A stretch of DNA of 64,000 bases, taken from NCBI GenBank assembly GCA_034189605.1, contig JAXHUO010000015.1, positions 8,321 to 72,320 of the forward strand, given 5' to 3'. The position numbers were made by a program, and so were the translations under genes. Below the pieces are notes generated by a model, which worked only from the letters and a program-made list of their open reading frames with translations, did not search any database and was not told where the DNA came from. This document shows positions 10,627 to 63,878 of the stretch, in pieces. How positions within the stretch are numbered: position 1 is the stretch's first letter; every line of letters starts with the position of its first letter. This stretch comes from Chloroflexota bacterium. GTDB lineage: Bacteria; Chloroflexota; Anaerolineae; B4-G1.

Positions 10627-10654
10627 CCCCAAACCCCGAACCCCGAAGACCAAA
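10627..10654. repeat. heptanucleotide tandem repeat, CCCCRAA-type x4
   Basis: cccc aaa cccc gaa cccc gaa gacc aaa begins 2 nt after the TAG stop at 10623-10625. Intergenic. Confidence 0.8.
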
Positions 10655-10715
10655 CTGAATGACTGACAATCAGCAACGAGTAACCAATATCCAGTATTGA
10701 GCACCGGAGGCCGCA

Positions 10716-12059
10716 ATGTCCTCTCTGCAAAATAAAATCGCCGACCGCACCGCTCACGTGGCCGTCATAGGATTGGGTTACGTCGGCTTGCCCTTGGCGA
10801 CGGCGTTCGCCAAGGCCGGCTTTCATACCATTGGTATGGAAGTGAACCAGGACAAGGTGGATGCTATCACTGCCGGTCAGAGTTACATCCCCGATGTCCC
10901 CGACGATGATTTGATCCCTCATGTCCAATCGGGCCGCCTCACAGCCACCTCGGATTATGACGCTTTGCGCGAGGCAGACGCCATGTTCATCTGTGTCCCC
11001 ACTCCCTACGACGCACAGCGTGCCCCTGACCTTTCCTATATCCAGGCTGCCAGTTATGGCATTCGGCCACGCCTACAGTCCGGCCAACTGATTGTCTTGC
11101 AAAGCACGACCTACCCCGGAACTACGGAAGAGATCGTCCGTCCGATTCTGGAGAAAAGCGGCCTCAAGGTCGGCGTGGATTTTTATCTGGCCTTCTCTCC
11201 CGAACGCATTGACCCTGGCAACAAGCAATGGTCGGCCTACAACACGCCCAAGGTCGTGGGCGGCATCACGCCGGAGTGCACCCAGCTGGCGTGTGACCTT
11301 CTGAGCCGGATGGGCGTGCCGGTACACCCTGTCTCCTCTCCCCGCGCTGCCGAGTTGACCAAACTGTTGGAGAATACCTTCCGCACTGTCAATATTGCGT
11401 TGGTCAACGAGTTGGCACTGCTGACCGAGCGCATGGGGATTGACTTTTGGGAAGTGATCGAGGCGGCCAAGACCAAGCCATTTGGCTTTATGCCCTTTAC
11501 TCCGGGGCCGGGTGTAGGGGGACATTGTATTCCGGTAGATCCCTACTATCTCTCCTGGAAAGCCCGCGAGTATGACTATTACACCGAGTTTATAGAACTG
11601 GCCGGCGAGGTCAACCAGGCGATGACGCATCACGTTGTAGACCTGGTATCTCAGGCCCTTTCGCTGCGCGGGAAGCCCTTGCGCAACGCGCGTGTACTGG
11701 TGCTGGGTGTTGCCTTCAAGCCCGACATTGACGACGCCCGCAACTCCCCTGCCGAACGGATCATCGAACTGCTGCTGGGTCGTGGCGCCCGCGTATGCTA
11801 CCACGACCCCTACGTGCCACGCTTCCGGGTGGGCAATGACGTTTTTCACCGCGAAGCAGTCGTGCTGGAGTCGGTGCCGCTAACGGAGGAGGAGGTCACC
11901 GCCGCTGACTGCGTCGTCGTCGTCACCAATCACCGCAGCATGGACTATGGCCGCGTAGTACGGCAGGCCAATCTGGTCGTGGACACCCGTAACGCCACTT
12001 CTGGCATAGCCGACCATAGGGAAAAGATCGTGCGCCTGGGCGCCCCGTTGCCCCAGTGA
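10716..12059 (+). CDS. nucleotide-sugar dehydrogenase (UDP-glucose/GDP-mannose dehydrogenase family, WbpA/WecC/TviB-like)
   Basis: 447 aa with an N-terminal VAVIGLGYVGLPLA Rossmann motif and the catalytic-Cys region PGVGGHCIPVDP. Confidence 0.9.
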   Translation: MSSLQNKIADRTAHVAVIGLGYVGLPLATAFAKAGFHTIGMEVNQDKVDAITAGQSYIPDVPDDDLIPHVQSGRLTATSDYDALREADAMFICVPTPYDAQRAPDLSYIQAASYGIRPRLQSGQLIVLQSTTYPGTTEEIVRPILEKSGLKVGVDFYLAFSPERIDPGNKQWSAYNTPKVVGGITPECTQLACDLLSRMGVPVHPVSSPRAAELTKLLENTFRTVNIALVNELALLTERMGIDFWEVIEAAKTKPFGFMPFTPGPGVGGHCIPVDPYYLSWKAREYDYYTEFIELAGEVNQAMTHHVVDLVSQALSLRGKPLRNARVLVLGVAFKPDIDDARNSPAERIIELLLGRGARVCYHDPYVPRFRVGNDVFHREAVVLESVPLTEEEVTAADCVVVVTNHRSMDYGRVVRQANLVVDTRNATSGIADHREKIVRLGAPLPQ

Positions 12060-12099
12060 TGTGTCTGGATCGCTCTCTCATATCAATGACTAAGACGTT

Positions 12100-12669: not shown

Positions 12670-12694
12670 CGGTGACACAGGCACGTGGTATAAT
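12666..12694 (+). promoter_or_regulatory. sigma-70-type promoter of the T-box leader (TTGACG-17-TATAAT)
   Basis: The -35 TTGACG is at 12666-12671, followed by a 17-nt spacer and the -10 TATAAT at 12689-12694. It overlaps the stop codon of the upstream gene. Confidence 0.6.
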
Positions 12695-12700
12695 CTAACT

Positions 12701-13011
12701 ATAGACTAGATTTAGAAAGACGGCGAACAGGAGGAGTAGGCGGGATTGGCTTTGGCGAACCATCCCTGAGATGGGAAGAGAAGAGGGCCACCGGCTGCAA
12801 GCCCTCGCAGCGCCCCCCGCCGAAGGTCGCCTGGGAGTCGAGAGGGTCAATGAATGTCCCCCACTGGCGTTCGATAGCCCTCTCCGGGTTCGCCCGTTAA
12901 CGCGAGAGCCCTTGTTGGAGGGCTGCAGAGTGCGATGATGGAATCCATCGTCGAACCAGGGTGGTACCACGGAAGCTTACCCCTTTCGTCCTTGGACGAA
13001 AGGGGCTTTTG
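12701..13011 (+). promoter_or_regulatory. T-box riboswitch leader, probable valine specifier (GUC)
   Basis: T-box core AACCAGGGUGGUACCACGG is at 12954-12972 (UGGU bulge). It is immediately followed by a terminator hairpin at 12980-13005 plus a U-tract. The Stem I 5' element GGCGAACAGGAGGAGUA at ~12721 resembles canonical leaders. In the 3' specifier-loop string GAAG-GUC-G, GUC lies at 12826-12828. valS is downstream. Confidence 0.7.
12980..13011 (+). terminator. intrinsic terminator of the T-box leader
   Basis: CCCCTTTCGTC(C) / (G)GACGAAAGGGG forms an 11-12 bp stem at 12980-13005, followed by CTTTTG. Confidence 0.75.
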
Positions 13012-13109
13012 CGTAGGAGAGGCACGATTCTGGTGGCACACCTCGCAGGAAGACGAGTAAGTCAAGCGGAAAGCGAGGCTGTGGAAAGAGTAGCACTGAG
13101 GAAATCGGA

Positions 13110-13335
13110 ATGGAAATTGAAGACATATTTGACGATCTGCCCGTTCTAAAGACTGGGCGGCTTTCGCACGATGGAGTTGAATCGTATTGAGGCCAGATGT
13201 AAGATTGGAAATATCGCTTCTGCACGTGTTATGGAAAAAGCGGGAATGAAGTTTGAGGGAATCTTGCGACAACACATATTTGCAAAAGGCACCTATCACG
13301 ATTTGAAGATATATTCTGTCCTTAGGGAGGAGTGA
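13110..13335 (+). pseudogene. internally deleted GNAT (RimJ/RimL-like) N-acetyltransferase relic
   Basis: The frame from ATG 13110 reads MEIEDIFDDLPVLKTGRL, an N-terminal RimJ-like LxTxRL motif, then stops at 13188-13190. A different frame, open from 13150 to TGA 13333-13335, reads ELNRIEARCKIGNIASARVMEKAGMKFEGILRQHIFAKGTYHDLKIYSVLREE, a typical GNAT C-terminus. The middle ~100 codons are absent. The segment is markedly AT-richer than its surroundings. Confidence 0.6.
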
Positions 13336-13342
13336 ACGAATA

Positions 13343-16117
13343 ATGACCGACAGACTTTCCAGAACCTACAACCCCAAGGAGCACGAAGAATGGCTCTACC
13401 AGTGGTGGGAGGAGCGGGGCTACTTTCGCCCCGAAAAGCAAGTTGAACTGGGCCTGGTCTCCGAGGGTGGCCCGCGCTGGTGCATCACCATGCCGCCCCC
13501 CAACGTCACCGGCGCGCTCCACCTGGGCCACGCCATGGTCGCAGCCGTCGAAGACCTGATGACTCGCTACTATCGCATGCGCGGTTTCGCTACCCTCTTT
13601 CTCCCTGGCTCCGACCACGCCGGGATCGCTACCCAAAACGTCGTGGAGCGGGAACTAGCCAAGGAAGGGCTCACCCGCCACGACCTGGGACGCGAGAGAT
13701 TCATCGCCAAAGTGTGGGAGTGGAAGCACGTCTACCATCATCGCATCACCGATCAGACTAAGCGGCTGGGTGTCTCGTGCGACTGGACAAGGGAGCGCTT
13801 CACCCTCGATGAGGGGCTGAGCCACGCCGTACGCACCGCCTTCACGCGCCTCTACGAGAAGGGTCTCATCTACCGGGGGACTTATTTGGTCAACTGGTGT
13901 CCCCGTTGCACCAGCGCCATCTCCGACCTGGAGGTGATCCCGGAAGAGCGTGCCAGTCACCTCTGGCACGTCCGCTACCCCATCCTCAACGACGATTGGG
14001 ATGGGCCAGCCCCCTCCCAATCCCCCTCAAATCCGGGGGGGAGATCCCCAGGGGGTTGGGGCAGCGGTAAATGGGCTGAGGGCGCGACCGAGTTCATCGA
14101 GATGGCCACCACCCGCCCAGAGACCATTCTGGGCGACACCGGTGTCGCCGTTCACCCCGACGATCCCCGCTGGCGATATCTGATTGGCAAGACCGCCATC
14201 CTGCCGGCAATCGGCCGCCGCGTTCCCATCATCGCCGATGAAGCGGTGGATCCAGAGTTCGGCACCGGTGCGGTCAAAGTCACCCCTGCGCACGACCCTA
14301 CCGACAACGAAATCGGCATCCGCCACGGCCTGGAGGCTCCCAACGTCATGACTGACACAGCCCAGATGAACGAGTTGGCCGGCCCCTACGCCGGACAAGA
14401 CCGCTCCGAGTGCCGTCGCAACATCGTTGCCGACTTTGAGAAGGAAGGATTGCTCGTCAAAGTCGAGCCCTACTTTCACGCTGTGGGCACCTGTGAGCGC
14501 TGCCATACCGATATCGAACCGCGCATCTCCACCCAGTGGTTCGTCAACGTAAAGCCGCTGGCCGAGGCCGCAATGGATGCGGTGCGCGAGGGTAGCACGA
14601 CCATCATCCCGGAGCGGGAGGAGCGGCGTTTCTTCCACTGGATGGAGAACATCCGCCCGTGGTGTATCTCGCGTCAACTGTGGTGGGGCCACCGCATCCC
14701 CGTCTGGTACTGCGACGACTGCAGTGAGCAGACCTGCGAGATAGTTGACCCTACCGCGTGTGCACATTGCGGTAGTGCGAATATCCACCAGGATGAGGAT
14801 GTCCTCGACACCTGGTTCTCATCTGGCCTATGGCCCTTCTCCACCCTCGGCTGGCCCGACACTAACGCGCCGGATTACCGCCGCTACTATCCTACTGACG
14901 TGCGCGAAACCGCCTACGAGATACTGTTCTTCTGGGTGGCACGGGAGATGATGCTGGGCATAGAACTGACCGGTCAGACCCCCTACTCCACCGTCTACCT
15001 GCACGGCCTGGTGCGCACCGAGGAGGGCAAAAAGGTCAGCAAGTCAATGGAGGATATTGACGAGTACGACCCATTGAACATCATCGAGAGGTACGGCTGT
15101 GACGCGCTCCGTTATACCCAACTGACCAGTTCCACGCCGGGTCTGGACATGAGCCTTGATCTACGTCGCCTGGAAAGCGCCCGCAATTTTACCAACAAAA
15201 TCTGGCAAGCGGCGCGATTCTCCCTCTCCAATCTGGATACTGGGCACTCAATATTGGATATTGACCAATCTCTAATCTCTAATCTCCATCTTCCCGACCG
15301 GTGGATTCTCTCGCGTCTAAATCATCTAATTCAGGACATGATTCGCCTTTTCGAGAGTCACCAGTACGGCGAGGCGGGCCGCCAGATTCACGACTTTCTG
15401 TGGGGGGAGTATTGCGACTGGTACATTGAGGCCAGCAAAGTGCGCCTCTACGACGAGACGGCGGACAAGTCCGTTCCGCGGGCCGTCCTGCTCCACGTGT
15501 TGGAGACAGCGCTGCGATTGCTACATCCCTTTATGCCATTTGTCACTGAGGCTATCTGGCAAGCACTGCCCAGTGAAACACGTAGGGGCGAGGCGCTGAT
15601 CATGGCCCGTTGGCCGGAGCCGGCCCCCGCATTCCTGGACGACGAAGCCGAGGGGCAAATGGAATTAGCGATGGCGCTCATTCGGGGTATTCGTAACCGG
15701 CGGGCTGAGTACAACGTGATCCCCGGCAAGCGCATCCCGGCTCTCATTGCCGCTGGCGACGCTGCTCAGTGGTTGGACGAGCAACGCGCCGTTCTCTGCA
15801 CCCTGGCCAAACTAGACCCTGAACAACTCTCTGTCCAACCAACCATCCAACCGCCTGTCCAGGCAGCGACCATCGTCGCGGGCGACGTCGTCTGCTACCT
15901 GCCGCTGGCCGCGCTGGTGGACCTGGAAGCGGAGCATGAACGGCTGTCGTCGGAACTGGACAAAGTTGAGGCTCGTATTGCCCGCAGCGAGAATCTGCTG
16001 GCGGGGGAGTTTGCACAAAAGGCACCTGCGCACATCGTTCAGCGAGAACGGGACAAACTGGCCGGCTTACAAATCGAACAAGCGAAACTAGAGGAGCGGC
16101 TGGCAGCGCTGGAGTAG
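13343..16117 (+). CDS. valS: valine--tRNA ligase
   Basis: 924 aa. HIGH-type motif PPNVTGALHLGHA, KMSKS-type motif KVSKSM, ATTRPET editing-domain motif and a C-terminal coiled coil. SD GGGAGGAG lies upstream. Confidence 0.97.
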   Translation: MTDRLSRTYNPKEHEEWLYQWWEERGYFRPEKQVELGLVSEGGPRWCITMPPPNVTGALHLGHAMVAAVEDLMTRYYRMRGFATLFLPGSDHAGIATQNVVERELAKEGLTRHDLGRERFIAKVWEWKHVYHHRITDQTKRLGVSCDWTRERFTLDEGLSHAVRTAFTRLYEKGLIYRGTYLVNWCPRCTSAISDLEVIPEERASHLWHVRYPILNDDWDGPAPSQSPSNPGGRSPGGWGSGKWAEGATEFIEMATTRPETILGDTGVAVHPDDPRWRYLIGKTAILPAIGRRVPIIADEAVDPEFGTGAVKVTPAHDPTDNEIGIRHGLEAPNVMTDTAQMNELAGPYAGQDRSECRRNIVADFEKEGLLVKVEPYFHAVGTCERCHTDIEPRISTQWFVNVKPLAEAAMDAVREGSTTIIPEREERRFFHWMENIRPWCISRQLWWGHRIPVWYCDDCSEQTCEIVDPTACAHCGSANIHQDEDVLDTWFSSGLWPFSTLGWPDTNAPDYRRYYPTDVRETAYEILFFWVAREMMLGIELTGQTPYSTVYLHGLVRTEEGKKVSKSMEDIDEYDPLNIIERYGCDALRYTQLTSSTPGLDMSLDLRRLESARNFTNKIWQAARFSLSNLDTGHSILDIDQSLISNLHLPDRWILSRLNHLIQDMIRLFESHQYGEAGRQIHDFLWGEYCDWYIEASKVRLYDETADKSVPRAVLLHVLETALRLLHPFMPFVTEAIWQALPSETRRGEALIMARWPEPAPAFLDDEAEGQMELAMALIRGIRNRRAEYNVIPGKRIPALIAAGDAAQWLDEQRAVLCTLAKLDPEQLSVQPTIQPPVQAATIVAGDVVCYLPLAALVDLEAEHERLSSELDKVEARIARSENLLAGEFAQKAPAHIVQRERDKLAGLQIEQAKLEERLAALE
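14006..14068. repeat. C-tract / G-tract low-complexity insert inside valS
   Basis: ccagccccctcccaatccccctcaaatcc followed by gggggggagatccccagggggttggggcagcgg. It encodes PAPSQSPSNPGGRSPGGWGSG, between the YPI and ATTRPET motifs. Confidence 0.6.
15251..15292. repeat. heptanucleotide tandem repeat, 6 units (42 nt), in-frame in valS
   Basis: Units are atattgg atattga ccaatct ctaatct ctaatct ccatctt. The tract encodes ILDIDQSLISNLHL. Confidence 0.75.
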
Positions 16118-16174
16118 ATCACAGATCAGGGAAAAGGGCACACAGACTTCGTCCGCCAGACGTGAAGTTCGCAT

Positions 16175-18509: not shown

Positions 18510-18517
18510 GAGATGAG

Positions 18518-28402: not shown

Positions 28403-29782
28403 GTGACCGATCAATCTCTTATTCCCCGTGCACTTGTCATCGGCGCTGGTATCGGCGGTATGCAAGCGGCCCTCGACATTGCTAATGCTGGCTACGACGT
28501 TGTCCTGGTTGAACGTCTCCCCTCCATCGGAGGGCGCATGGCCCAACTTTCGGAGACCTTTCCCACCCTGGATTGCTCCCAGTGCATCCTCACCCCCCGC
28601 ACTGTCGAGGTCGGCCATCACGAACATATCCGCCTGCTCACCTACTCCGAGGTCGAGGCGGTCGAGCCCCTTCTTTCCCCATCTCAGGTAGAGGGGCAGG
28701 GTAGGGGGGCAGGGTTCCGCGTGCGCATACGTCGTCACGCCGCCTACGTGGACTGGGACAAGTGCACCGGTTGTGGCCTCTGTCAGGAGAAATGCCCCCG
28801 CAAGGTGCCTTCCGGTTTCGAGCGTTATGCGGGGAAACGTAAGGCAATCTACACCCTCTCCCCCCAGGCAGTGCCGAACAAGCCAGTTATTGACCGCGAT
28901 AATTGCATCTTTTTCCAGCGGGGCAAGTGCAAAGCCTGTGAGCGGTTCTGCCCGGTGGGGGCGATTGACTATGACCAGGAAGACACGGTCATTGAGGAGC
29001 GGGTTGACGCGATCGTCCTGGCCACCGGCTATGACCTTTATGGATTGGATAACATGCCCGAGTATGGTGGTGGCAAGGTGCCGGATGTGATTGACGCGCT
29101 TGCTTTTGAGCGGCTGCTCTCCGCCTCCGGCCCCACCGCCGGCGAGATCCAGCGCCCCTCCGACGGGAGAGTTCCCCGCGAGGTTGTCTTTGTACAGTGC
29201 GCTGGTTCCCGCGATCCCGAAAAGCACCTGCCTTACTGCTCTAAAGTCTGCTGTATGTACATCGCCAAGCAGTCCATCCTCTACCGCCACCGGGTCCACG
29301 ATGGACAGGCATACATATTCTATATTGACATCCGCGCCGCAGGCAAGCGGTACGACGAGTTCACCCAGCGGGCTATGGAGGACGAGCACGTGATCTATCT
29401 GCGAGGCAAGGTCTCCCGTATTTTCCGCAAGAACGACAAGGTGATAGTGTGGGGAGCCGACACGCTCAGCGGGCAGCAGATACAGATCGCCGCCGACCTG
29501 GTGGTGCTGGCCCCGGCACTCTTGCCCCGCTCCACGACGCATCGGTTGGCCGAGATATTGGGGTTGCCAGTGGATGAGCATGGCTGGTTGCTCTCCCTCG
29601 ACTCAAACGCATACCCGGTGGAGACCGTTCGGCCCGGTATTTTCCTGGCTGGCGCTGGCACGGGGCCGATGGACATCCCAGAGACGGTTGCCCACGCCAG
29701 CGGTGCGGCAGCCCAGGTACTCAAACTTTTCTCCCCTGGTTCGGTCGGAAACCAACCAGAGCCTTTGCAGGAGGAACAGTAG
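28403..29782 (+). CDS. hdrA: HdrA-like FAD/FeS oxidoreductase, core plus inserted ferredoxin domain only
   Basis: 459 aa. FAD motif ALVIGAGIGGMQAALD, TLDCSQCIL, inserted ferredoxin CTGCGLCQEKCP and C-x2-C-x3-CP, CSKVCCMYIAKQ, LAGAGTGPMDIPETVAHASGAA. It lacks the N-terminal Cys domain and the C-terminal 2x[4Fe-4S] domain of canonical HdrA. Confidence 0.85.
   Translation: MTDQSLIPRALVIGAGIGGMQAALDIANAGYDVVLVERLPSIGGRMAQLSETFPTLDCSQCILTPRTVEVGHHEHIRLLTYSEVEAVEPLLSPSQVEGQGRGAGFRVRIRRHAAYVDWDKCTGCGLCQEKCPRKVPSGFERYAGKRKAIYTLSPQAVPNKPVIDRDNCIFFQRGKCKACERFCPVGAIDYDQEDTVIEERVDAIVLATGYDLYGLDNMPEYGGGKVPDVIDALAFERLLSASGPTAGEIQRPSDGRVPREVVFVQCAGSRDPEKHLPYCSKVCCMYIAKQSILYRHRVHDGQAYIFYIDIRAAGKRYDEFTQRAMEDEHVIYLRGKVSRIFRKNDKVIVWGADTLSGQQIQIAADLVVLAPALLPRSTTHRLAEILGLPVDEHGWLLSLDSNAYPVETVRPGIFLAGAGTGPMDIPETVAHASGAAAQVLKLFSPGSVGNQPEPLQEEQ
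28667..28714. repeat. pyrimidine-arm / purine-arm low-complexity insert (48 nt) inside hdrA-like 1
   Basis: ccccttctttccccatctc aggta gaggggcagggtaggggggcaggg. The purine arm has a 14-nt periodicity. It encodes PLLSPSQVEGQGRGAG at the position of the conserved GYVGN segment. Confidence 0.65.
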
Positions 29783-29783
29783 G

Positions 29784-31538
29784 ATGGCTCGCATCGGCAT
29801 ATTCGTCTGCCACTGTGGGCTCAACATCGCCAGTACGGTAGACGTGCAGCGGGTGGCCAAGACTCTGTACAACTACCCTGGCGTTGTCTATGCCACCGAC
29901 TACAAGTATATGTGCTCCGACCCTGGTCAGGCACTCATCCAGCAGACTATCGCGGAGCACGACCTGGATGGGGTAGTCATCGCCGCCTGTTCCCCAGCAA
30001 TGCATGAATCCACCTTCCGCAAGGCCGCCGCCGCTGCCGGGCTAAACCCCTACCAGGTGGAGATCGCTAATATCCGAGAGCAGGTCTCCTGGCCGCACCA
30101 AAACGCGCCGGAGGAAGCCACTCGCAAGGCCATTGAGATAGTGCGCACCATCGTGGAGAAGGTGCGTTACGATGAACCGCTGGTGCCACTCACGCTGCCC
30201 ATCATCAAGCGGGTGTTGGTAGTCGGTGGAGGCATCGCCGGGCTGACTTCTGCCCTGGACGTAGCCACTGCTGGGTACCCGGTGACCCTCGTCGAGCGGT
30301 TAGACCACCTGGGCGGGAAGATGACGCAACTCTCTCGCCTCTACCTCAACTTTGACGCCAGCAGGGGCTTGCTGGAGGAACGTGTCGCAGCCGTTGTCCA
30401 CCATCCCCTCATTCAGGTGCTCACGAACGCAGAGGTGATAGAGTTTGGGGGATACGTGGGCAATTTCACGGTGGAGGTTTCGGGTTCCAGGTTCCAGGTT
30501 TCGGATTTGCCCAATACGGAATATGAAACTTTGAAACCTGAGACTCACTGTCTAGATGTGGGGGCGGTGGTGCTCGCCACCGGCTTTGACCTCTACGCTA
30601 AGGCGAACTTGCCAGAGTACGGAGGCGGGCGGTACCCCGACGTGGTGGATAGCCTCCAGTTCGAAGCCATGCTGCAAGCGGGGGAGATCCGCTGTCCTTC
30701 GGATGGCCGTGTGCCTCGGGAGGTCGTCTGGGTGCAATGCGCCGGTTCCCGCGATCCGAACCTCCACCGGCCTTATTGCTCCAAAATTTGCTGTATGTAC
30801 GTCGCCAAGCAGACCATTGCCTACCGCCGCGCAATTCCCGAAGGACAGGCTTATGTTTTCTACATTGATATCCGCTCACAGGGCCGTGGGTACGACGAGT
30901 TCGTCCAGCGGGCGATGGAGGAATTCGGCGTCGTCTATCTGCGTGGTAAGGTGTCCCGGCTCATCCAGCGGGATGGGCGGTTGGAGGTATGGGGCGCCGA
31001 CACTTTGAGCGGCCAATCAATGCGCGTGGAAGCCGATCTGGTGGTGCTGGCGATGGCGACTGTGCCCAGTTCCGGGAGCGAGACATTGGCCCGCCTGATG
31101 CGCGTAGCCACCGACGAAAGCGGGTTCTTAGCCGAAGCCCATCCCAAACTGCGCCCGGTGGAGAGCCTTACGGCAGGCATTTATCTGGCTGGTGCAGCCC
31201 AGTTCCCCAAGGACATCCCGGAGACAGTGGCTCAGGCATCAGGCGCAGCGGCCAAGGTTCTCCAACTTTTTGCCCAGCGTGAGATGGTGGCCGAGCCGAC
31301 CGTCGCCATCGTAGACGAGGAACTATGCGCGGGCTGTGGGCGTTGCGTGCCGGCCTGCCCCTATGACGCCCGAGAACTGGACCCCTGGAGACCCCTGGCT
31401 ACGGTCAACGTGGCCCTCTGTCAGGGCTGTGGGGCCTGTGTCGTCGCCTGCCGGAACAAGGCGACTATCGTACGCAACTTGACGCCAGAGCAGGTGCTGG
31501 CGATGGTAGAAGCGGTGTTGCCAAACCCCAATGATTAA
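29784..31538 (+). CDS. hdrA: HdrA-like FAD/FeS oxidoreductase with N-terminal Cys domain and C-terminal ferredoxin domain, lacking the inserted ferredoxin
   Basis: ATG 29784 lies 1 nt after the upstream TAG, with GGAGGA upstream. N-terminal IFVCHCGLNIAS...YMCSDPG...AACSP, FAD motif VLVVGGGIAGLTSALD, CSKICCMYVAKQ, and C-terminal CAGCGRCVPACP plus CQGCGACVVAC. The track extension from 29574 overlaps hdrA-like 1 and is rejected. Confidence 0.85.
   Translation: MARIGIFVCHCGLNIASTVDVQRVAKTLYNYPGVVYATDYKYMCSDPGQALIQQTIAEHDLDGVVIAACSPAMHESTFRKAAAAAGLNPYQVEIANIREQVSWPHQNAPEEATRKAIEIVRTIVEKVRYDEPLVPLTLPIIKRVLVVGGGIAGLTSALDVATAGYPVTLVERLDHLGGKMTQLSRLYLNFDASRGLLEERVAAVVHHPLIQVLTNAEVIEFGGYVGNFTVEVSGSRFQVSDLPNTEYETLKPETHCLDVGAVVLATGFDLYAKANLPEYGGGRYPDVVDSLQFEAMLQAGEIRCPSDGRVPREVVWVQCAGSRDPNLHRPYCSKICCMYVAKQTIAYRRAIPEGQAYVFYIDIRSQGRGYDEFVQRAMEEFGVVYLRGKVSRLIQRDGRLEVWGADTLSGQSMRVEADLVVLAMATVPSSGSETLARLMRVATDESGFLAEAHPKLRPVESLTAGIYLAGAAQFPKDIPETVAQASGAAAKVLQLFAQREMVAEPTVAIVDEELCAGCGRCVPACPYDARELDPWRPLATVNVALCQGCGACVVACRNKATIVRNLTPEQVLAMVEAVLPNPND
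30476..30538. repeat. nine-heptad (63 nt) dyad-symmetric repeat element, in-frame in hdrA-like 2
   Basis: Units are ggtttcg ggttcca ggttcca ggtttcg gatttgc ccaatac ggaatat gaaactt tgaaacc. The first and last units are near reverse complements, and the arms can pair with G:U pairs. It encodes (E)VSGSRFQVSDLPNTEYETLKP. Confidence 0.8.
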
Positions 31539-31544: not shown

Positions 31545-31579
31545 TTTGTCACTGATCATTTGTCATTTACCCCTTGTCG
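31545..31579. repeat. heptad-phased tract (TTTGTCA-type, TTGTC every 14 nt x3) that supplies the -35 box
   Basis: Units are tttgtca ctgatca tttgtca tttaccc cttgtcg. Intergenic, 5 heptads. Confidence 0.6.
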
Positions 31580-31588
31580 CGTTATAAT
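31560..31588 (+). promoter_or_regulatory. promoter TTGTCA-17-TATAAT, near-leaderless for the fhaA-like gene
   Basis: -35 at 31560-31565 and -10 at 31583-31588. ATG 31600 lies 11 nt after the -10, there is no SD, and the expected 5' UTR is at most ~5 nt. Confidence 0.55.
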
Positions 31589-32834: not shown

Positions 32835-33625
32835 TGGACCTGGGATTACACGACAAGGTCGTACTGGTAGCCGCTGCTAGCAAGGGTTTGGGCAAGGCTG
32901 TCGCGCTGTGCCTGGCTCAAGAGGGCGCGCACATTGCCATCTGTGCTCGGGGCGAAGAGCATCTGACCAGTACCGCCGCCGAAATTGAGATGAAGACGGG
33001 CCGCCCTGCGCTGGCTCTCCCGGCCGACGTCTCAGACCCGGCGGCTGCGAATGCGTTGGTCAAGGCCACTGTGGAACGATTCGGACGGATTGATATCCTG
33101 ATCACCAACGCTGGGGGGCCGCCTCCGGGGCAATTCCTGGATCTAACCCCTGACGACTGGGAAACTGCCACACGGATGACGTTGATGAGCGCAGTGCGCC
33201 TCTGTTATGCCATAGTGCCGGTGATGAAGGAACAAGCCGAGGGTTCCATCCTGGCTATGACCTCGGTCAGTGTCAAGCAACCTTTGCCTAACCTCATCCT
33301 ATCCAACAGCCTGCGGTTGGGGGTGATCGGTCTGGTCAAGACATTGGCCGATGAACTGGCCCCCTCCGGTATCCGCGTCAATGGTATCTGCCCTGGCTGG
33401 ACCCGCACAGCACGGGTTGACCAACTCTTGCGCGACAGGGCTGGGCGAAACTCGACTACGCCGGAGGAAGAGGCCGCGAAAATCAAAGCCGCCATCCCTC
33501 TGGGACGGATGGGTACGCCGGAGGAGTTCGCCGCCGCCGCCGCGTTCCTTGTCTCACCCGCCGCCTCCTACATCACCGGCGTCAGCCTGCTCGTGGACGG
33601 GGGAATGTACCGGGGATTGATGTGA
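32831..33625 (+). CDS. SDR family oxidoreductase (FabG-like)
   Basis: 264 aa. Cofactor-site glycine-rich motif region and NAGG. Start overlaps the upstream stop. Confidence 0.85.
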   Translation: MMDLGLHDKVVLVAAASKGLGKAVALCLAQEGAHIAICARGEEHLTSTAAEIEMKTGRPALALPADVSDPAAANALVKATVERFGRIDILITNAGGPPPGQFLDLTPDDWETATRMTLMSAVRLCYAIVPVMKEQAEGSILAMTSVSVKQPLPNLILSNSLRLGVIGLVKTLADELAPSGIRVNGICPGWTRTARVDQLLRDRAGRNSTTPEEEAAKIKAAIPLGRMGTPEEFAAAAAFLVSPAASYITGVSLLVDGGMYRGLM

Positions 33626-41703: not shown

Positions 41704-41766
41704 ATCGCGAAGCGCGGATAGCGAATCAGTAACTAGTGTGGAATCGGGATTCGCAGGTTCGCAAAT
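41704..41766. repeat. nine-heptad (63 nt) dyad-symmetric repeat element in the leuC-leuD spacer
   Basis: Units are atcgcga agcgcgg atagcga atcagta actagtg tggaatc gggattc gcaggtt cgcaaat. GCGAATC (41721-41727) is inverted as GATTCGC (41748-41754). Confidence 0.65.
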
Positions 41767-47550: not shown

Positions 47551-49998
47551 TTATCCTCCGTACAGTGCCCTGTAGACTGCCCAGTGCTCTTTGATGCGCT
47601 GGATGTAGAGACGTGGTTCGTGCAGGGTGATGAGTTCGAGGAACAGGTCGGGGTCGTCGCCGGCAGCCTCCAGCCAGCGCTCGGCGCGGAAAGGGCCCCC
47701 ATTGTAGGCTGACAGCGCTACGTCCAGGCGGTTATCGAAGCGGTAGTATTGTTGCGCCAGGTAGTAGGTGCCAAAGCGCAGGCTGACGTAGGGGAGGTAT
47801 AGGTCGGCAGTCTTATAGTCCGGCGGCCAGTCCAGTTCGGTGGCTATCTGTGCGCCGGTGGGGGGAATCACCTGCATCAGCCCGTGAGCGCTGGCGGTGG
47901 AGGTGGCGAGGCTCTCGAAGAGGCTCTCCTGCCGGATGAGGGCGAAGACGAGAAGCGGGTCGAGATCGTTCGCGTGAGCGTTCTGCAGCACCAGATCCTC
48001 GTGGTAGGTGGGGTAGGCCAGACGGGCGATGAAGGCTGGGGCCTCAATGGTGGTGGCAACCGGGGAGAGGTGCACGACTCTCGTGGCGCAGAGGATGGAG
48101 GAGCGGTAGAGACCGATGTCGCGGAATAGAAGCGCCAGTTGGTACTGGGCCAGCGCGTCCGACCTGGTGTCATAGCGGAGGGATTCCAGTTCCCATTTGG
48201 CCTCCTCAAAGCAGCCCAATCGCCATAATTCCAGGCCACGTTGGAGGTGGGGTGTAGCGACGAGGTCGGGATCCAGCAGGGGCGGGGTCACCCCGCTTTC
48301 ACCCAGATCCAATCCCAGCCACCCGGCCAACCACTCCTCCGCCTCGGCCTGGGCTGTGACGGCATCATAGTCGGGTCTGTACCGGGTGGGTGAGAAAGAC
48401 GGAGAGGGCGGGTCGGCGATCAGATCAACGGCACGCAGACCATAGTAACTGGTGGGGTCAGCGGTGCTGGCCTCCTCGAAGGCGGCCGAGGCCGCCTCGT
48501 TGTCTTCCTGGGCCAGGCTGAGTTTGCCCAGCCAGAGGAGGGCCGCGGGGTTATAGGGGGAAGTGGGGTAGGCGGCGACCAGCGTATCCCAGGCGGCAGC
48601 GGCGTCCTCTAACTCGTCCAGTTGATAGGATTGCAGCCCGCTGCGGAAGAGGGCCGGAGGGCCATAATCGGAATCGGGATAGGCGGTGTGGCAGTCCAGG
48701 TAAGCTGCTGCCGCGGCTTCCAGTTCGCCAGCCCGCTCCAGGAGTTGGGCCGCTTCCCAAAGTGCCTCCGGTGCACGGGAGTGATCAGGGGCAGCGGTGG
48801 CGAATTCCCAGTAGGTGATGATGGCGGCGTGGGTATCGCCAGCATCATCCTGGGCCTCGGCCAGGTCCATCCAGGCATCACCCCAGTGCTCGTTCTCCGG
48901 CTGGGCCTCGATCAATGTCTGGAACTCACCCGCAGCCAGATTGGGGCTCCCGGCGGCCAGGTACGCCCGGCCCGCATACCAATGGGCGTCTCCAGAGTAG
49001 GTCTCGGGGTTGGCGCGTATATAACGGTGAAAGGCCTCGACCGCCGGGCCGTAGGCTCCCCCGTAATAGTCCACCACGCCGCGCAGAAAGTCGTCCACCG
49101 TCCGTCCGGCCTCCACCAGTTCGACCAGTGAGAGGTAGGCATAGTGCTCAGTGGAATAGTCCTCGACGACGGCCAGGTGGCGGTCGTAGCCAGCCTCGGT
49201 CTCCCCGGCCAGGATGAGCGTCTCAGCAGCCTGGTGCTCAATGCGGGCGCGGTAGGCGCGTATCTGTGCTATGTCGAGGATAGCGTCGTACTGGGCGATG
49301 GCGGCGGGGTAATTCTCCAGGGCAACCTGGGTGAGGGCCAGTTTCTCACGCACGCCGACCTCGAAGGAACGGTCGGGAACCTCAGCGAGGGCGGCCTCGT
49401 AGGCTCTGACGGCCGGGAGGTAGTCGCCGCCAGCGTGGAAGGCATCCCCCAGCCGTTGGTTCACGTAGGCGGTGATGACCGTCCCGGCGGAAAGATAGGC
49501 CTGGTATTCTTCAGTCGCCGTCAGCGGTTCGCCTGTACCAACGAGAGCCTCGGCCAGCAGGAAGTGGCCGTCGGGGGCCAGGTCACTTTCGGGATAGGCA
49601 TCCAGAAAATCGCGGAGGGCGTCGGCGGCGCTGAGGTAATCGCCAGCGCGCAGGTAGGCCGTGCCCAGGCCAATCTGAGCCTGGGCTGTGCTTTCCCTGT
49701 CAAGAGGGAGGGCCAGCAGGCCACGATAAGCATCGGCGGCGGTCTCATAGTCGCCATCCTGCAGCGCTTGCGTGGCGTCAGAGAGCCATTCGCCGGGGTC
49801 GGGGGTGGGGGTCGGCGTGGAAGTGGGCGTGGGAGCAGGTGTGGAGGTGGGCGTGGGGGTGGGGGTGGGAGTGAGAGTGAGTGTGGGGGTGGCGGTGGCA
49901 AAGAGTGGCGGTGGTGTTAGGTAGGAGGGTACGTTGCAAGCCAGCGCTGCCGCGATCAGTGTGGAGAGAGCCCAAAGGGCCAGTTTCGGTCGGCGCAT
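47551..49998 (-). CDS. TPR-repeat lytic transglycosylase (SLT domain)
   Basis: I prefer ATG 49998 (MRRPKLALWAL signal peptide). Pro/Thr linker, long TPR region and a C-terminal SLT domain (LIRQESLFES, AHGLMQV, YNGG). Confidence 0.8.
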   Translation of the reverse strand: MRRPKLALWALSTLIAAALACNVPSYLTPPPLFATATPTLTLTPTPTPTPTSTPAPTPTSTPTPTPDPGEWLSDATQALQDGDYETAADAYRGLLALPLDRESTAQAQIGLGTAYLRAGDYLSAADALRDFLDAYPESDLAPDGHFLLAEALVGTGEPLTATEEYQAYLSAGTVITAYVNQRLGDAFHAGGDYLPAVRAYEAALAEVPDRSFEVGVREKLALTQVALENYPAAIAQYDAILDIAQIRAYRARIEHQAAETLILAGETEAGYDRHLAVVEDYSTEHYAYLSLVELVEAGRTVDDFLRGVVDYYGGAYGPAVEAFHRYIRANPETYSGDAHWYAGRAYLAAGSPNLAAGEFQTLIEAQPENEHWGDAWMDLAEAQDDAGDTHAAIITYWEFATAAPDHSRAPEALWEAAQLLERAGELEAAAAAYLDCHTAYPDSDYGPPALFRSGLQSYQLDELEDAAAAWDTLVAAYPTSPYNPAALLWLGKLSLAQEDNEAASAAFEEASTADPTSYYGLRAVDLIADPPSPSFSPTRYRPDYDAVTAQAEAEEWLAGWLGLDLGESGVTPPLLDPDLVATPHLQRGLELWRLGCFEEAKWELESLRYDTRSDALAQYQLALLFRDIGLYRSSILCATRVVHLSPVATTIEAPAFIARLAYPTYHEDLVLQNAHANDLDPLLVFALIRQESLFESLATSTASAHGLMQVIPPTGAQIATELDWPPDYKTADLYLPYVSLRFGTYYLAQQYYRFDNRLDVALSAYNGGPFRAERWLEAAGDDPDLFLELITLHEPRLYIQRIKEHWAVYRALYGG

Positions 49999-50004
49999 GG
50001 TTCT

Positions 50005-50033
50005 ATTATCGCCGAGAGGGGCGAGTTTGTCAA
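50005..50033 (-). promoter_or_regulatory. consensus promoter TTGACA-17-GATAAT placing the TSS on the ATG of the lytic transglycosylase gene (leaderless)
   Basis: On the minus strand, -35 at 50033-50028, a 17-nt spacer, and -10 at 50010-50005. Six nt later comes ATG at 49998-49996, with no SD. Confidence 0.6.
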
Positions 50034-50051
50034 CTGGGGGCATCTCGATAG

Positions 50052-51774: not shown

Positions 51775-52167
51775 GTGGCAGAGTTTGGCTGGTACAGTGA
51801 GAAGGTGCTGGAGCACTACCAGCACCCGCGCAATTTGGGAGAGATTGAGCAGGCCGACGGTGTGGGCATGGTGGGCAACCCGGTCTGTGGTGATATGATG
51901 AAGATCACGATCAAGGTCCAGGACGATAGGATTGAGGATGTAAAGTTCAAGACTTTTGGTTGTGGTGCGGCCATCGCTACCACGTCTATGGTGACTGAAC
52001 TGGTCAAAGGAAAAATGCTGGATGAGGCACTGCAGGTCACCAACCAGGATGTGGTCGAGGCGTTGGATGGCCTGCCGCCCATCAAGGTGCATTGTTCGCT
52101 GCTGGCCGAGGAGGCGATCAAGGCGGCAATTGAGGATTATCGGAGTAAAATAGCCAGCGACCAGTGA
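51775..52167 (+). CDS. Fe-S cluster assembly scaffold (NifU N-terminal / IscU-like)
   Basis: 130 aa. GNPVCGDMM, FKTFGCGAAIA and KVHCS cluster-ligand motifs. Confidence 0.9.
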   Translation: MAEFGWYSEKVLEHYQHPRNLGEIEQADGVGMVGNPVCGDMMKITIKVQDDRIEDVKFKTFGCGAAIATTSMVTELVKGKMLDEALQVTNQDVVEALDGLPPIKVHCSLLAEEAIKAAIEDYRSKIASDQ

Positions 52168-52193: not shown

Positions 52194-52228
52194 GCTGACT
52201 GCTAACCGCTGACCGTTAACGGCTATTA
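52194..52228. repeat. heptanucleotide tandem repeat, GCTNACC-type x5, followed by a T7 G8 homopolymer pair
   Basis: Units are gctgact gctaacc gctgacc gttaacg gctatta. T7 at 52231-52237 and G8 at 52238-52245 follow, directly upstream of ATG 52248. Confidence 0.75.
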
Positions 52229-53592: not shown

Positions 53593-55155
53593 GTGGCGAG
53601 AGGCGGGGATAGGTTGTGGGTGGCCGCAGTTACGGCACTGGGCGGCTACCTGCGGGCCTGTCAGATCGGTGGCAAAGGGCTCTGGATAGACGAGGCGTTC
53701 AGTGTCTGGCTGGGCTGGCAACCTGTGGGGGAGATGTTGGGCTGGCTGGTCCGCATTGACCAGCATCCGCCACTCTACTATCTACTGCTGCACTTTTGGA
53801 TGATCCTCGGCGATGACCCATCTACCGTGCGCGCACTCTCCGCTCTGTGCGGCACGCTGACCATCCCCGTGGTTTACCTGCTGGGCCGCCGCCTGGCCGG
53901 CGACAAGGTAGGGTTCCTCACTGCGCTGATCCTGGCTGTTTCCCCTTTCCACGTGCGCTTTGCCCAGGAGACGCGCATGTACACGCTGCTGACGCTGAAC
54001 GCTTCGCTGGCGCTGTATGCGCTGGCCTGGTTGTTCACTGACCCCCGCTCGGCCGAAGCACGGCTGGGCCGGCAGTTCGTAGACTTTTGGCGGGGCTGGC
54101 GAACCACCCGTCGCCGCCCTCCCATGTGGGTCATTGAGACCGACCTGGCCTGGCTGGGTTACGTGCTCTTCACGGCGGCGATGCTGTTGACTCATAACAC
54201 AGCAGTCTTCTTTCCCGTCGCCACAAATATTATCGTGCTGCTCTTGGTCCGCCTGCGAATCGCGAATCGCGAATCACGAATCACGAATCACGGGTTCTTA
54301 CGCAACTGGCTCCTGGCCCAGGTAGGCGTGTTTCTGTTATGGAGCCTCTGGCTCCCGGCCTTTGCCGTCCAGGGCGTAGGTGTCTACCGGGAGTTCTGGC
54401 TGCCTGCGCCAACGTGGAGCACTGTCGCCGGCGCGGTAGGGGCCTTTGTGAGCGACTTCCTGCCGTTGCCGCCCGCCGGTCTCTGCGCGGTAGGGGTGCT
54501 GTACGCGGGGTTGGCGCTACTGGGGCTGGTTCACTTCCGCCGCCGTCCGGCGCACGTCTTGTTTCTGCTCGTCACCTTCACAACGCCATTCGTGGGCGAG
54601 TGGCTGGTCAGCCTATACCGGCCCATCTTTTACGATCGCACGCTCATCTGGGCATCGCTCCCGCTTTACCTGCTGCTGGCCGCTGGCATACGCCAGTTGC
54701 ATCACCGGTCTTATATTATCGGCGTCATTCTGGTGGTGCTGGTGGTCAACACCCTTTCGCTGCGGGAGTATTACGTCAACTTCGAGAAGGAGCAGTGGGA
54801 TGACGCAGCACTGTTTGTGGCGGGGCGGGTGGAGGCCGGTGACTTGATTCTGTTTAATGCTACCTGGACGCAGATTCCATTTGACTATTACTTTCGCCGG
54901 TACGAGCGATCGGTGGCCGAGCACGGCGTGCCGGTGGATTTGTTTGACCGGGGTGTCCTGGAGCCAGAGATGTCTACAGACGATCTCCCCCGGCTGCGGG
55001 TGCTCGTCCGGAGCCACGAACGAGTGTGGTTGGTCTACAGCCACGACTGGTACACTGATCCGCAGGGATTGATCCCCCTGGCGTTGGAGGAGGAACTTGA
55101 TCTGCTCGACCGGTGGGACTTTTATGGCCTGCAGGTGCGGCTGTACGGGAGATAG
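53593..55155 (+). CDS. glycosyltransferase family 39-like (ArnT/PMT_2) membrane protein
   Basis: I prefer GTG 53593, because the track start at 53560 overlaps the predicted -10. GLWIDEAFSVWL and HPPLYYLLLHFW are typical of PMT_2-type GT-C enzymes. A soluble C-terminal domain follows. Confidence 0.75.
   Translation: MARGGDRLWVAAVTALGGYLRACQIGGKGLWIDEAFSVWLGWQPVGEMLGWLVRIDQHPPLYYLLLHFWMILGDDPSTVRALSALCGTLTIPVVYLLGRRLAGDKVGFLTALILAVSPFHVRFAQETRMYTLLTLNASLALYALAWLFTDPRSAEARLGRQFVDFWRGWRTTRRRPPMWVIETDLAWLGYVLFTAAMLLTHNTAVFFPVATNIIVLLLVRLRIANRESRITNHGFLRNWLLAQVGVFLLWSLWLPAFAVQGVGVYREFWLPAPTWSTVAGAVGAFVSDFLPLPPAGLCAVGVLYAGLALLGLVHFRRRPAHVLFLLVTFTTPFVGEWLVSLYRPIFYDRTLIWASLPLYLLLAAGIRQLHHRSYIIGVILVVLVVNTLSLREYYVNFEKEQWDDAALFVAGRVEAGDLILFNATWTQIPFDYYFRRYERSVAEHGVPVDLFDRGVLEPEMSTDDLPRLRVLVRSHERVWLVYSHDWYTDPQGLIPLALEEELDLLDRWDFYGLQVRLYGR
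54255..54296. repeat. heptanucleotide tandem repeat, RCGAATC x5 plus one degenerate unit (42 nt), in-frame in the GT39-like gene
   Basis: Units are gcgaatc gcgaatc gcgaatc acgaatc acgaatc acgggtt. The tract encodes RIANRESRITNHGF. Confidence 0.85.
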
Positions 55156-63700: not shown

Positions 63701-63858
63701 TGACGGGGGCTTTGAGCGTTTTTATCGGCCTCGCGGGCAGCATGGCCGCGCTGTTGGCGCACGGTCTGGTGGACAATACACTGTTCTTCCCCGACCTGGC
63801 GCTGATCTTTTTCTTGACGTTGGCGCTGCTTGCAGAGGAGCGAGGGGCTGGGGGCTAG
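60724..63858 (+). CDS. fusion protein: N-terminal glycoside-hydrolase-like TIM-barrel domain, central beta-rich domain, C-terminal O-antigen ligase (Wzy_C)-like polytopic domain
   Basis: 1044 aa. Signal anchor, VWDEPNL (NEP-type acid/base motif), then about 12 TM segments with FSRGALLLALP and EHPHNVYLDHWTRLGLLGLLAG Wzy_C-like motifs. Confidence 0.7.
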   Translation: MSRRRGSQHVLRLFLWLALLLAVGLVAQAVVVTRQTRTRGVPSGFPAPVAGADVPILGVNVALEQYDDEEGEELEAALARIAEGGFVWVRQSFYRSQIEPEPGRFDWTVPDRVIAALARQPRLRLVAVLDDSPPIPPADPDRFAAFAGAFAARYGAQVDYYQVWDEPNLAAHWGGGPVNPPAYADLLARTAHAVRAADSDARILLAGLAPTVETGPQNLSDVRYLEQLYQAGAAPYFDVVSGKPYGFDTGPDDRRAPEDGTVLNFSRLLLLREVMVEQGDAGKAIWASHWGWNALPPGWTGAPSLWGQTGETTQAARTIAALERTRAEWPWVGALILEHFQPDAGPDDPRWGFALVGQDDAPRPVYDAVAAWATALPDGAPVGGYPALNPWATYEGDWRAGPLGADVGRSTALTAGSGGDRAIFRFAGSAVALMVRRGPYRAFLYVTVDGRPANALPRDDTGRAYVVLYDDIPTVATVPLATGLSPGPHTVEVLAEGGQGQWALVDWRVGSEPVADNFGWWMTGLAAAGLVLAALLIRDARRVEWRTLARIFLGWPEWAQVALLAGLTGVLWASAWVSWGHDLSLASCLPFPVFCLFLSLLVLPALAMLFALRPDLGLALVVFTAPFYLHPGVMLHRALSLPEVLVVLCTLGIAGLRIYASPNLRISPIDWAVLLLVLAAVVAGLAAADWRAAIFELRTVFLLPALYYGLLRLARLPERARWRVLDGWVLGAVGVALIGLVQYALGSNVSIAEGGLPRLQSVYYSPNNVGLYLERVWPLLVAVALWGGNLSPGRRGETYRRTLYGLALAVVTLALVLSFSRGALLLALPAALLVMVWRAGTWSRSPRPYRWAALALVVVGVLALIPLLRVPRFASMFDLQQGSTFFRLELWHSSLTLVREHPWFGVGPGNFLDAYRTRYVLPTAWEEFNLEHPHNVYLDHWTRLGLLGLLAGVAVQVSFWRTIFHRSQPSSPRASSGRPLHQRRLLAAWGAPVTGALSVFIGLAGSMAALLAHGLVDNTLFFPDLALIFFLTLALLAEERGAGG
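62688..62735. repeat. 16-nt period tandem repeat x3 (TCTCCGAATYTACGSA-type, 48 nt), in-frame
   Basis: tctccgaatttacgca tctccgaatctacgga tttctccgattgactg. The tract encodes (G)LRIYASPNLRISPIDW. Confidence 0.7.
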
Positions 63859-63878
63859 GGGCCAGGAGCCAGGAGCGA
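63844..63878. repeat. heptanucleotide tandem repeat, GGRGCYR x5, straddling the stop codon
   Basis: Units are ggggctg ggggcta ggggcca ggagcca ggagcga. The TAG stop at 63856-63858 lies inside unit 2/3. Confidence 0.8.

Follow-up and report, generated by a model that had tools for sequence, protein, structure and literature searches.

Heptanucleotide tandem arrays inside and between genes of an uncultured Anaerolineae lineage: probable slippage-generated simple-sequence repeats filtered by selection

Why does a 64,000-nucleotide (nt) stretch of DNA from a Chloroflexota bacterium (class Anaerolineae; contig JAXHUO010000015.1, positions 8,321–72,320; hereafter, the window) carry dispersed tandem arrays of 7-nt units, several of them in-frame inside core genes? 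A first reading of the letters alone (the original prediction) listed ten such loci and likened them to the short tandemly repeated repetitive (STRR) sequences of cyanobacteria, a likeness that proves apt, as does that to heptanucleotide simple-sequence repeats (SSRs) in general. Among the long SSRs of many prokaryotes, those with 7-nt units are reported to be the most abundant, polymerase slippage has been proposed as their source (Mrazek et al. 2007, summarised in PMC4679880, PMC4692102), and repeats in coding regions reportedly have mostly units whose length is a multiple of three (PMC4679880). The window arrays are SSRs of a known kind, met here in a lineage new for them and, unusually, embedded in coding sequence. 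Their best explanation, to which we give a probability of about 70 per cent, is that they are slippage-generated, STRR-like long SSRs of an uncultured Anaerolineae lineage that have been filtered by selection.

The window was scanned with Tandem Repeats Finder (TRF) and with a self-match score at each lag from 2 to 21, and a tract was counted at a lag score of at least 12 under a mismatch penalty of −3 or −2. At the penalty of −3, there are five tracts at lag 7, two at lag 14 and zero to one at each remaining lag; at −2, there are seven at lag 7 versus zero to two at other lags. Forty dinucleotide-preserving shuffles of the window gave a mean of ~0.02 tracts at a score of at least 12. Together, TRF and the lag-7 scan identify seven head-to-tail heptamer arrays of 2.9–6.4 copies each; two-copy TRF tracts, such as those at 40723, 42275 and 62903, are at chance level. 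The period-7 excess in the window is real, and because the period of the DNA is 7, codon structure cannot be its source.

By Pfam, the host genes encode valyl-tRNA synthetase (ValRS), an HdrA-like flavoprotein, a fusion of a SEDS protein (FtsW/RodA family) with a class B penicillin-binding protein (PBP), a PMT_2 (GT-C) glycosyltransferase, a Wzy_C/O-antigen-ligase-like protein and a GT4-family transferase. The closest loci among GTDB species genomes come from Anaerolineae, Anaerolineales and Thermoflexia metagenome-assembled genomes (MAGs), with 55–78 per cent protein identity to the window. We examined ~1.3 Mb of lineage sequence, picked around genes already known to bear arrays (loci and contigs are designated below by L numbers). 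Loci found via the SEDS-PBP gene share with the window just the upstream fhaA-to-SEDS operon; the valS and hdrA sites were compared by protein search instead. With the same threshold of 12, Anaerolineae loci linked by the SEDS-PBP gene (425 kb) contain 19 tracts of period 7, eight of period 14 and zero to six of any other period, whereas distant loci from Chloroflexia and Actinobacteria (406 kb) have none of period 7 or 14 and zero to seven of other periods. Metagenome contigs linked by the PMT_2 gene carry 45 tracts of period 7, 32 of period 14 and 0–10 of others where the ortholog is closer to that of the window (386 kb), and 22, 13 and 0–6, respectively, where it is remote (389 kb). Period-7 repeat formation is a lineage-wide phenomenon, and a repeat-generating process such as had been proposed at the outset, with a strong preference for 7-nt units across genome and lineage, is borne out by the window lag spectrum, the shuffles and these period counts.

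Removal of duplicates leaves 81 non-redundant arrays, on contigs of many MAGs and metagenomes, mostly with 3–5 copies and at most ~15. Coding arrays make up 47 of the 81, yet array density per base pair is higher outside genes than inside them, in a sample that is biased to two array-bearing genes. Many arrays of the relatives lie within 4–60 nt of the boundary of an open reading frame (ORF), and many others deep inside coding regions. In the window itself, five of the eight arrays (seven of heptamers and one of period 14, all described on the plus strand) are in-frame inside genes, as had been predicted for valS, the SEDS-PBP gene, the hdrA-like gene and the PMT_2 gene (then called GT39-like). 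All five coding tracts are in permissive segments, and each site is a hot spot across the lineage.

The strongest window tract is in the PMT_2 gene, where RCGAATC is repeated 5.3 times at 54255–54292 (TRF score 60, 96 per cent matches; lag-7 score 28). It encodes LRIANRESRITNHG, residues 232–245, in the loop between transmembrane segments that hydropathy predicts at 214–232 and 252–270. Among 44 closer orthologs, this loop has 12–72 amino acids (aa) and a mean lag-7 match of 0.50; in 37 remote orthologs it is mostly 19 aa long and non-repetitive, with a mean lag-7 match of 0.25. The lag-7 match fraction is at least 0.5 in 21 of the 44 closer loops versus none of the 37 remote ones, and some loops (L070, L091) are built wholly of heptamers in a single register.

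In valS, the array at 15251–15292 (lag-7 score 13) has a core of AATCTCT repeated 2.9 times at 15267–15286 (TRF; 100 per cent matches), preceded by two ATATTGR units that form an imperfect inverted partner. The tract, which encodes ...SILDIDQSLISNLH..., falls where the anticodon-binding domain starts, in a variable loop six residues longer than that of T. thermophilus ValRS (1GAX). In orthologs 73–89 per cent identical to the window protein, this loop is hypervariable and heptamer-coded, and the DNA of three of them displays CCAACYT in 9–11 copies and two inverted array pairs. In L136, a gene with a cold-shock domain is located close to valS.

The array of the HdrA-like gene (30475–30538; lag-7 score 12) consists of an arm of GGTTYCR repeated 3.7 times (30475–30500; TRF unit AGGTTCC), followed by the inverted arm GAAACTT TGAAACC, and encodes SGSRFQVS...ETLKPET; the RNA hairpin predicted for it lacks significance (z = −1.3). 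A linker of ~19 residues is filled by the tract, at a place where HdrA structures hold an insert of ~90 residues. The linker measures 13–83 aa among orthologs, most of which share the two-armed module of the window. The PMT_2, ValRS and HdrA-like tracts are lineage-specific expansions, each absent from remote orthologs or solved structures. As for the HdrA-like protein itself (29574–31538), it does not have the inserted domain of ~90 residues that is seen in methanogen HdrA structures, and NCBI annotates it as 584 aa, with a start 70 codons downstream of that of the longest ORF.

Two coding tracts belong to the SEDS-PBP gene. In the N-terminal extension, ATTCTCC is repeated 6.4 times at 36356–36401 (TRF score 62) and encodes residues 38–53, DSPFSILHSALAILSF. 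Hydropathy predicts two extra transmembrane segments here, and these residues make up the loop and the first part of the second segment. RodA and FtsW structures align to the protein only from residue 78 or 99 on, past the array. At least 12 orthologs have heptamer arrays at this site, with other units and a mostly constant loop length: the unit is ATTCTCC in the window, CAATTCG in L003, L004 and L005, CAATCTC in L002, L008, L009 and L014, CATTGGT in L029 and TGCAATC in L028. The positions of these arrays persist across species with 60–78 per cent protein identity, and in more distant orthologs the site has the same length without periodicity. The second tract, GTCCAAN repeated 5.7 times at 37516–37555, encodes SPTSNVPSPKSKVR in the linker that joins the SEDS part to the PBP part, and is followed in the same linker by a period-8 array, CCCTTGTC repeated 2.9 times at 37576–37598. 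In orthologs, this linker is a general repeat hot spot, with periods of 7, 8, 4, 14, 15 and 16. A fifth hot spot is a loop of the membrane protein encoded at 33622–35148, which has arrays in L004, L013, L014 and L016 and none in the window. Arrays also occur in other large membrane proteins of the relatives, including apparent Wzy_C orthologs (by synteny).

Several further observations concern the same gene and repeats. The SEDS-PBP protein (36244–38979; L002–L046) is a natural one-polypeptide fusion present in ~30 Anaerolineae MAGs, with full-length matches in some actinobacterial MAGs. Its gene is downstream of fhaA, an FHA-domain gene, an SDR gene, a gene for a polytopic membrane protein and a PNP_UDP_1 gene. 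Period 8 is the second commonest repeat class in the lineage, counting periods that are not multiples of 3 or 7, and period-8 arrays (CCCTTGTC, ACCAATCT) share hot spots with heptamer arrays in the window (37576–37598), in L003, L004, L005, L064 and L066, and at 13165–13200 of L068. The longest array has 14 copies of CCATTCT (sense) at 3850–3949 of L025, within a minus-strand ORF (2834–5791). The peptide that it encodes, LHPPSSLLHSPFSILHPPPSILHPPFSILHSPFF, is flanked in a 986-aa protein by hydrophobic, transmembrane-like stretches, and unit and peptide both match the SEDS array of the window. Further examples of predicted array-encoded peptides are IANRESRITNHGFLR and SPTSNVPSPK.

Outside the five coding tracts, an intercistronic array of ACCCCRA repeated 3.1 times (10626–10647; TRF; lag-7 score 12) begins directly after the stop codon of the GT4 gene (9621–10625), with a UDP-glucose dehydrogenase gene (Pfam) downstream at 10716. 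GGRGCYR is repeated 4.7 times at 63843–63876 (TRF; lag-7 score 17), across the stop codon (63856–63858) of the Wzy_C/O-antigen-ligase-like gene (Pfam). These two arrays and the five coding loci with heptamers bring to seven the listed loci that stand; the other three do not. At 52194–52228, described before as GCTNACC in five copies, TRF gives an intergenic period-14 array, GCTGACCGCTAACC repeated 2.2 times at 52194–52224, made up of two related heptamers in alternation and situated between a NifU-like gene (stop at 52167) and a ThiF-family gene (Pfam). At 31545–31579, TTTGTCA recurs at 14-nt spacing over a sigma-70-like promoter, not as a heptad tract. At 41704–41766, where nine heptads with dyad symmetry had been proposed, there is no lag-7 signal, and the dyad amounts to the 7-bp inverted repeat GCGAATC-N20-GATTCGC alone.

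That inverted repeat, at 41721–41754, is inside the 94-nt leuC-leuD spacer and may be a hairpin or an attenuator. The promoter is a near-consensus TTGTCA-17-TATAAT at 31560–31588 whose end is only 11 nt from the start codon of fhaA (ATG, 31600), so that the predicted transcript of the fhaA-to-SEDS-PBP operon may be leaderless or nearly so; the 14-nt-spaced TTTGTCA copies span its −35 region. In L020, ATTTGTCATTTGTCA lies 26 nt upstream of fhaA.

The scan of the window against Rfam matched no family, and a search of the window for tRNA and tmRNA genes found none. RNA folding of five array segments gave z values from −1.3 to +0.9 for the window segments (−0.03 for the array at 10626–10647; not significant for those at 52194 and 63843–63876), and only a segment of L056 reached z = −2.2. 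Since four of the five predicted folds are no better than those of shuffles, folding lends no support to a reading of the window arrays as structured RNAs.

The units themselves are diverse. As had been stated at the outset, each window array has its own unit, and a BLAST comparison with all sequence examined found no second copy of any module within the window. Across the 81 arrays there are many units, the commonest canonical unit occurring in only six, and the mean GC content of arrays is 47 per cent versus ~60 per cent for the genomes. Outside arrays, we found no strongly over-represented 7-mer of the HIP1 kind: CCAATCT, for instance, occurs as a dispersed singleton nine times versus 7.9 expected. 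The GCGAATC that the original prediction regarded as a unit shared by two unlinked loci has 11 matches versus 10.0 expected, which is chance. With so many units in use and no single 7-mer in strong excess, the process looks specific to unit length rather than to unit sequence.

Comparison of arrays suggests how they form. In the PMT_2 loops of L070 (18 units) and L091 (25 units), the units grade along the array while the register stays constant. The CCAACYT array of the L138 ValRS gene (9–11 copies) extends the conserved flank CTCTCCAACCT, and arrays thus appear to grow out of local sequence. At the orthologous SEDS site, all units are CATTCTC in the window and CAATTCG in L004. Because all units of an array differ alike between species, this concerted change indicates probable homogenization within arrays.

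How is the reading frame kept? The original prediction held that tracts inside ORFs are 42 or 63 nt long, i.e. multiples of 21 nt. Objective lengths are 20–46 nt for the five tracts, none of them a multiple of 21; the longer figures arose because degenerate flanking units were counted. Nor are coding arrays enriched for such lengths among the 81 objectively called arrays, with nine of 47 within 2 nt of a multiple of 21 versus ~11 by chance. The test is in any case ill-posed, because a tract in an intact ORF keeps the frame at any length, and the relevant measure is the length difference between related alleles. PMT_2 loops are 46, 53 and 60 aa long in L089, L095 and L091; 35 aa in L067 and L073 versus 42 aa in L074; and 29 aa in L078 versus 43 aa in L070. 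The SEDS loop of L028 is 7 aa longer, and the remaining differences between orthologs are 1, 4, 6 and 10 aa. In four of seven PMT_2 contrasts the loops differ by a multiple of 7 aa, which corresponds to 21 or 42 nt, versus one in seven expected (binomial P ~0.01, for contrasts picked post hoc), so that stepping of loop length by 21 nt is only suggestive.

The arrays change slowly. In a small sample of five array-bearing pairs with flanks 99.4–100 per cent identical (L056/57, L068/69, L078/79, L092/93 and L095/96), the loops are identical, and differences in loop length emerge at ~5–10 per cent divergence of the flanks. Each of the 28 SEDS-PBP orthologs keeps its frame across the array site, and all of the array-bearing PMT_2 loops displayed are in frame too. 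These observations fit slow repeat turnover under purifying selection. One further locus, L001, is 100 per cent identical to the window, and three window proteins are singletons in their 90 per cent clusters; the other two have no exact match in that protein collection, and no strain variants of the window proteins are present in the database.

We hypothesize that 7-nt arrays arise out of local sequence via replication slippage or unequal exchange. They would then gain and lose units while point mutations make variant units, and re-expansion of one variant would homogenize the array, leaving each locus and species with its own unit. What the arrays themselves show is survival where harm is small: between genes, across gene ends and in intragenic segments that are permissive, be it a loop joining two transmembrane helices, a linker of domains or an extension at a terminus. 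Within a gene, three units (21 nt), being read in all three frames, yield a 7-residue peptide repeat, so that net changes in length must be multiples of 3 nt, and are often 21 or 42 nt. An array, once formed, persists as a hot spot, and orthologs for that reason carry different arrays at one position. No sequence-specific function is needed by this slippage account.

Known heptamer repeats provide the closest comparisons. Within the literature collection that was searched, we found no report of heptamer repeats for Chloroflexota or Anaerolineae. As in prokaryotic heptanucleotide SSRs at large, period 7 is over-represented here, units are many and loci dispersed, the host is not a pathogen and its genome is fairly rich in GC, and slippage is the proposed source; unlike them, in-frame copies in core genes are frequent, occupy conserved orthologous hot spots and sometimes make up whole loops. 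Cyanobacterial STRRs, GGGNATC repeats (Xanthomonas, Nostoc) and TAACTGA repeats (Beggiatoa) are mainly intergenic, with regulatory roles that are proposed rather than established (PMC4679880, PMC4692102, bioRxiv 10.1101/2022.06.06.494920). The TAACTGA repeats of Beggiatoaceae, Cyanobacteria and Bacteroidetes are likewise direct repeats of a heptamer, often by start codons and in filamentous mat bacteria, and the same study noted three-frame translation into a 7-residue repeat (PMC4679880). They differ from the present arrays in having one dominant unit with stop codons in forward orientation and in being almost always intergenic, whereas here units are many and coding copies frequent.

The STRRs of Calothrix, Nostoc and Anabaena and the GGGGA(C/T)T/GGGAATC repeats (PMC4692102) share with our arrays the 7-nt unit, the dispersed loci, with 2 to >20 copies, and the inverted pairs. 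Some repeats of this type are also within 50 bp of stop or start codons, as are the arrays at 10626 and 63843. The CATTGGT unit of L003 and L029 is a rotation of STRR2, TTGGTCA. Unlike STRR-type repeats, the present arrays belong to another phylum, have diverse and relatively AT-rich units, and include, in the window, none with four runs of G. They are not STRRs in the strict sense, as the host is a Chloroflexota MAG and the units differ from canonical STRR1–3. A G-quadruplex heptamer repeat of the GGGNATC type was rejected for the window as well: it needs at least four consecutive runs of at least three G, and the window arrays reach three at most, with three GGGG runs each at 10626 (minus strand) and 63843 and G-poor sequence in the others.

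Several points weigh against the slippage account. It leaves the reason for the 7-nt unit length unexplained. About half of the length differences between orthologs are not multiples of 21 nt (12, 18 and 30 nt), which means that other indels occur too, and the identity of arrays between contigs with near-identical flanks means that turnover is slow and the arrays are not hypermutable. Inverted partner arrays, defined as at least two tandem reverse-complement units within 90 nt, accompany 15 of the 81 arrays versus two of 81 in controls with reversed or complemented units, which simple slippage does not predict. Finally, like two-armed modules recur in unrelated genes and genomes.

Most of the 81 arrays have no inverted partner. 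Where one is present, a GGTTTC arm followed by a GAAACC arm (VSGF...ETLNLKPET) is found in the window and many other HdrA-like genes, in the ValRS gene of L136 and in the PMT_2 genes of L056, L060, L067 and L074. The ValRS gene of L137 has a GGAGAAT arm and then an ATTCTCC arm; the ATTCTCC unit alone is present in the SEDS gene of the window, in L004 and in L025 (14 copies). HdrA-like orthologs and SEDS-PBP linkers carry a module encoding NWETGKLG...STNLPIYQ, as does an intergenic stretch of L068. In that contig, three related arrays (11650–11720, 12815–12895 and 13165–13200) lie within 1.6 kb downstream of a PMT_2 gene, with units TGGTAGAT, TGGGAAAC and the complement ACCAATCT; two of the arrays are inverted, ~270 nt apart, and members of this sequence family inside the HdrA-like and SEDS-PBP genes of other genomes encode NWETGKLG and STNLPIYQ.

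The inverted partners and recurring modules could stem from a restriction to units whose peptides do no harm in any frame, from switching of templates at hairpins, or from an element that is mobile or converting. It is doubtful that the two-armed modules are lineage-specific small palindromic elements that spread or convert ectopically, are tolerated in frame and repeatedly rebuild loops of core proteins (ValRS, RodA-PBP fusion, HdrA-like, GT-C glycosyltransferases) in Anaerolineae. If they are, they would be a bacterial counterpart, made from 7-nt repeats, of Rickettsia palindromic elements (RPEs), possibly with a hairpin-dependent mechanism or function. The inverted modules are the lead most worth following.

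We judge it unlikely that the whole set of arrays, or at least its two-armed part, consists of small palindromes that move or convert ectopically and have an internal 7-nt periodicity, resembling RPEs or REP doublets forming hairpins (REPINs) and miniature transposable elements with inverted repeats (MITEs), and that settle in frame at permissive sites and replace each other at hot spots. The excess of inverted partners speaks for such elements, as do the presence of one module, in one arm order, in three unrelated genes of different genomes and the differing module types that HdrA-like linker orthologs bear and that are found elsewhere too. The arrays also resemble RPEs in adding in-frame segments at permissive sites of conserved, essential proteins, and a subset is palindromic; RPEs are reportedly tolerated in-frame at surface or loop sites, as Ogata and colleagues are said to have described in 2000. 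RPEs, unlike our arrays, are mobile, ~100–150 bp long and present in many near-identical copies per genome without short tandem periodicity. Here, arrays are locus-specific, have a 7-nt periodicity and vary in length, and multi-copy identity was not found: each window array has its own unit with no second module copy, and no 7-mer is strongly over-represented. Moreover, one array extends its local flank, units grade along arrays, and in several cases length has changed by a multiple of 7 nt. Terminal repeats, target duplications and a transposase were not seen. A protein-database search with a synthetic module peptide returned 273 word-sharing candidates, the matches being short hypothetical ORFs. 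Between L066 and L067, the loop is wholly replaced with no shared flank within it, hence not by a clean insertion.

Quite improbable, in our estimate, is that the arrays are cis-regulatory or structural nucleic-acid elements, either sites for a protein that binds one heptamer per subunit (e.g. cold-shock-domain proteins) or modulators of translation or transcription, as has been suggested for the heptamer repeats of cyanobacteria and Beggiatoa. Arrays do adjoin start and stop codons, at 10626 and 63843 in the window and near many ORF boundaries in relatives; their positions are kept across species at 60–78 per cent protein identity; and regulatory roles have been proposed for heptamers near start codons in Beggiatoaceae (PMC4679880) and for those of Nostoc (bioRxiv 10.1101/2022.06.06.494920). 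However, the units are highly diverse and have no common motif, the unit sequence at one site is not conserved across species, many arrays lie deep within coding regions, and neither the Rfam scan nor folding of four of the five segments gave support.

It is very improbable that the arrays are contingency loci at which gain or loss of a single unit would frameshift envelope-biogenesis genes (SEDS-PBP, PMT_2, Wzy_C-type) on and off. As in the phase-variable SSRs of Haemophilus, Neisseria and Campylobacter, the unit length is not divisible by three and several host genes build or modify the cell envelope; the SEDS array is close to the 5′ end of its gene, and phase variation by heptanucleotide repeats is known in Haemophilus (PMC2651432, PMC8262952). 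In contrast to phase-variable SSRs, our arrays are invariant between near-identical contigs, show no out-of-frame alleles, and have low copy numbers and degenerate units. The identical loops of the five contig pairs and the intact frames of every ortholog examined argue against phase variation, and valS and an hdrA-like gene bear arrays too, as do linkers that lie well away from the 5′ end. That the signal arises from chance, a compositional artefact or protein-level selection for 7-residue repeats is scarcely credible: the two-copy tracts conform to it, but it is ruled out by the window lag spectrum (5–7 tracts observed at a period of 7, not 21, versus ~0 in shuffles), by the period counts of relatives and by the occurrence of arrays between genes as well.

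Two observations concern other genes of the region. A 17-copy hexamer array (GGGGTG on the plus strand, 49795–49898) in the minus-strand gene 47551–50043 encodes a linker, (Thr-Pro)n, which follows the signal-anchor in a lytic transglycosylase with TPR and SLT domains, and its non-coding strand is strongly G-rich. Upstream of valS in L137, a UDP-glucose dehydrogenase gene (332–3127) encodes 931 aa, including an intein (Intein_splicing and LAGLIDADG matches). Its apparent counterpart in the window (10716–12059) encodes 447 aa and has no intein.

These arrays are of wider interest: heptanucleotide repeats are the commonest long SSRs in many bacteria and are generally reported from between genes, and in this lineage they are in frame within core and essential genes. 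In practical terms, the arrays vary the length of marker genes such as valS, and they may mislead gene calling, because short spurious ORFs get called across them. If the inverted modules turn out to be mobile, they would constitute a new class of in-frame selfish element. The lineage is a natural system for studying the birth, homogenization and filtering of repeats with non-multiple-of-three units in coding DNA, and the origin of new protein loops and linkers from non-coding-like sequence.

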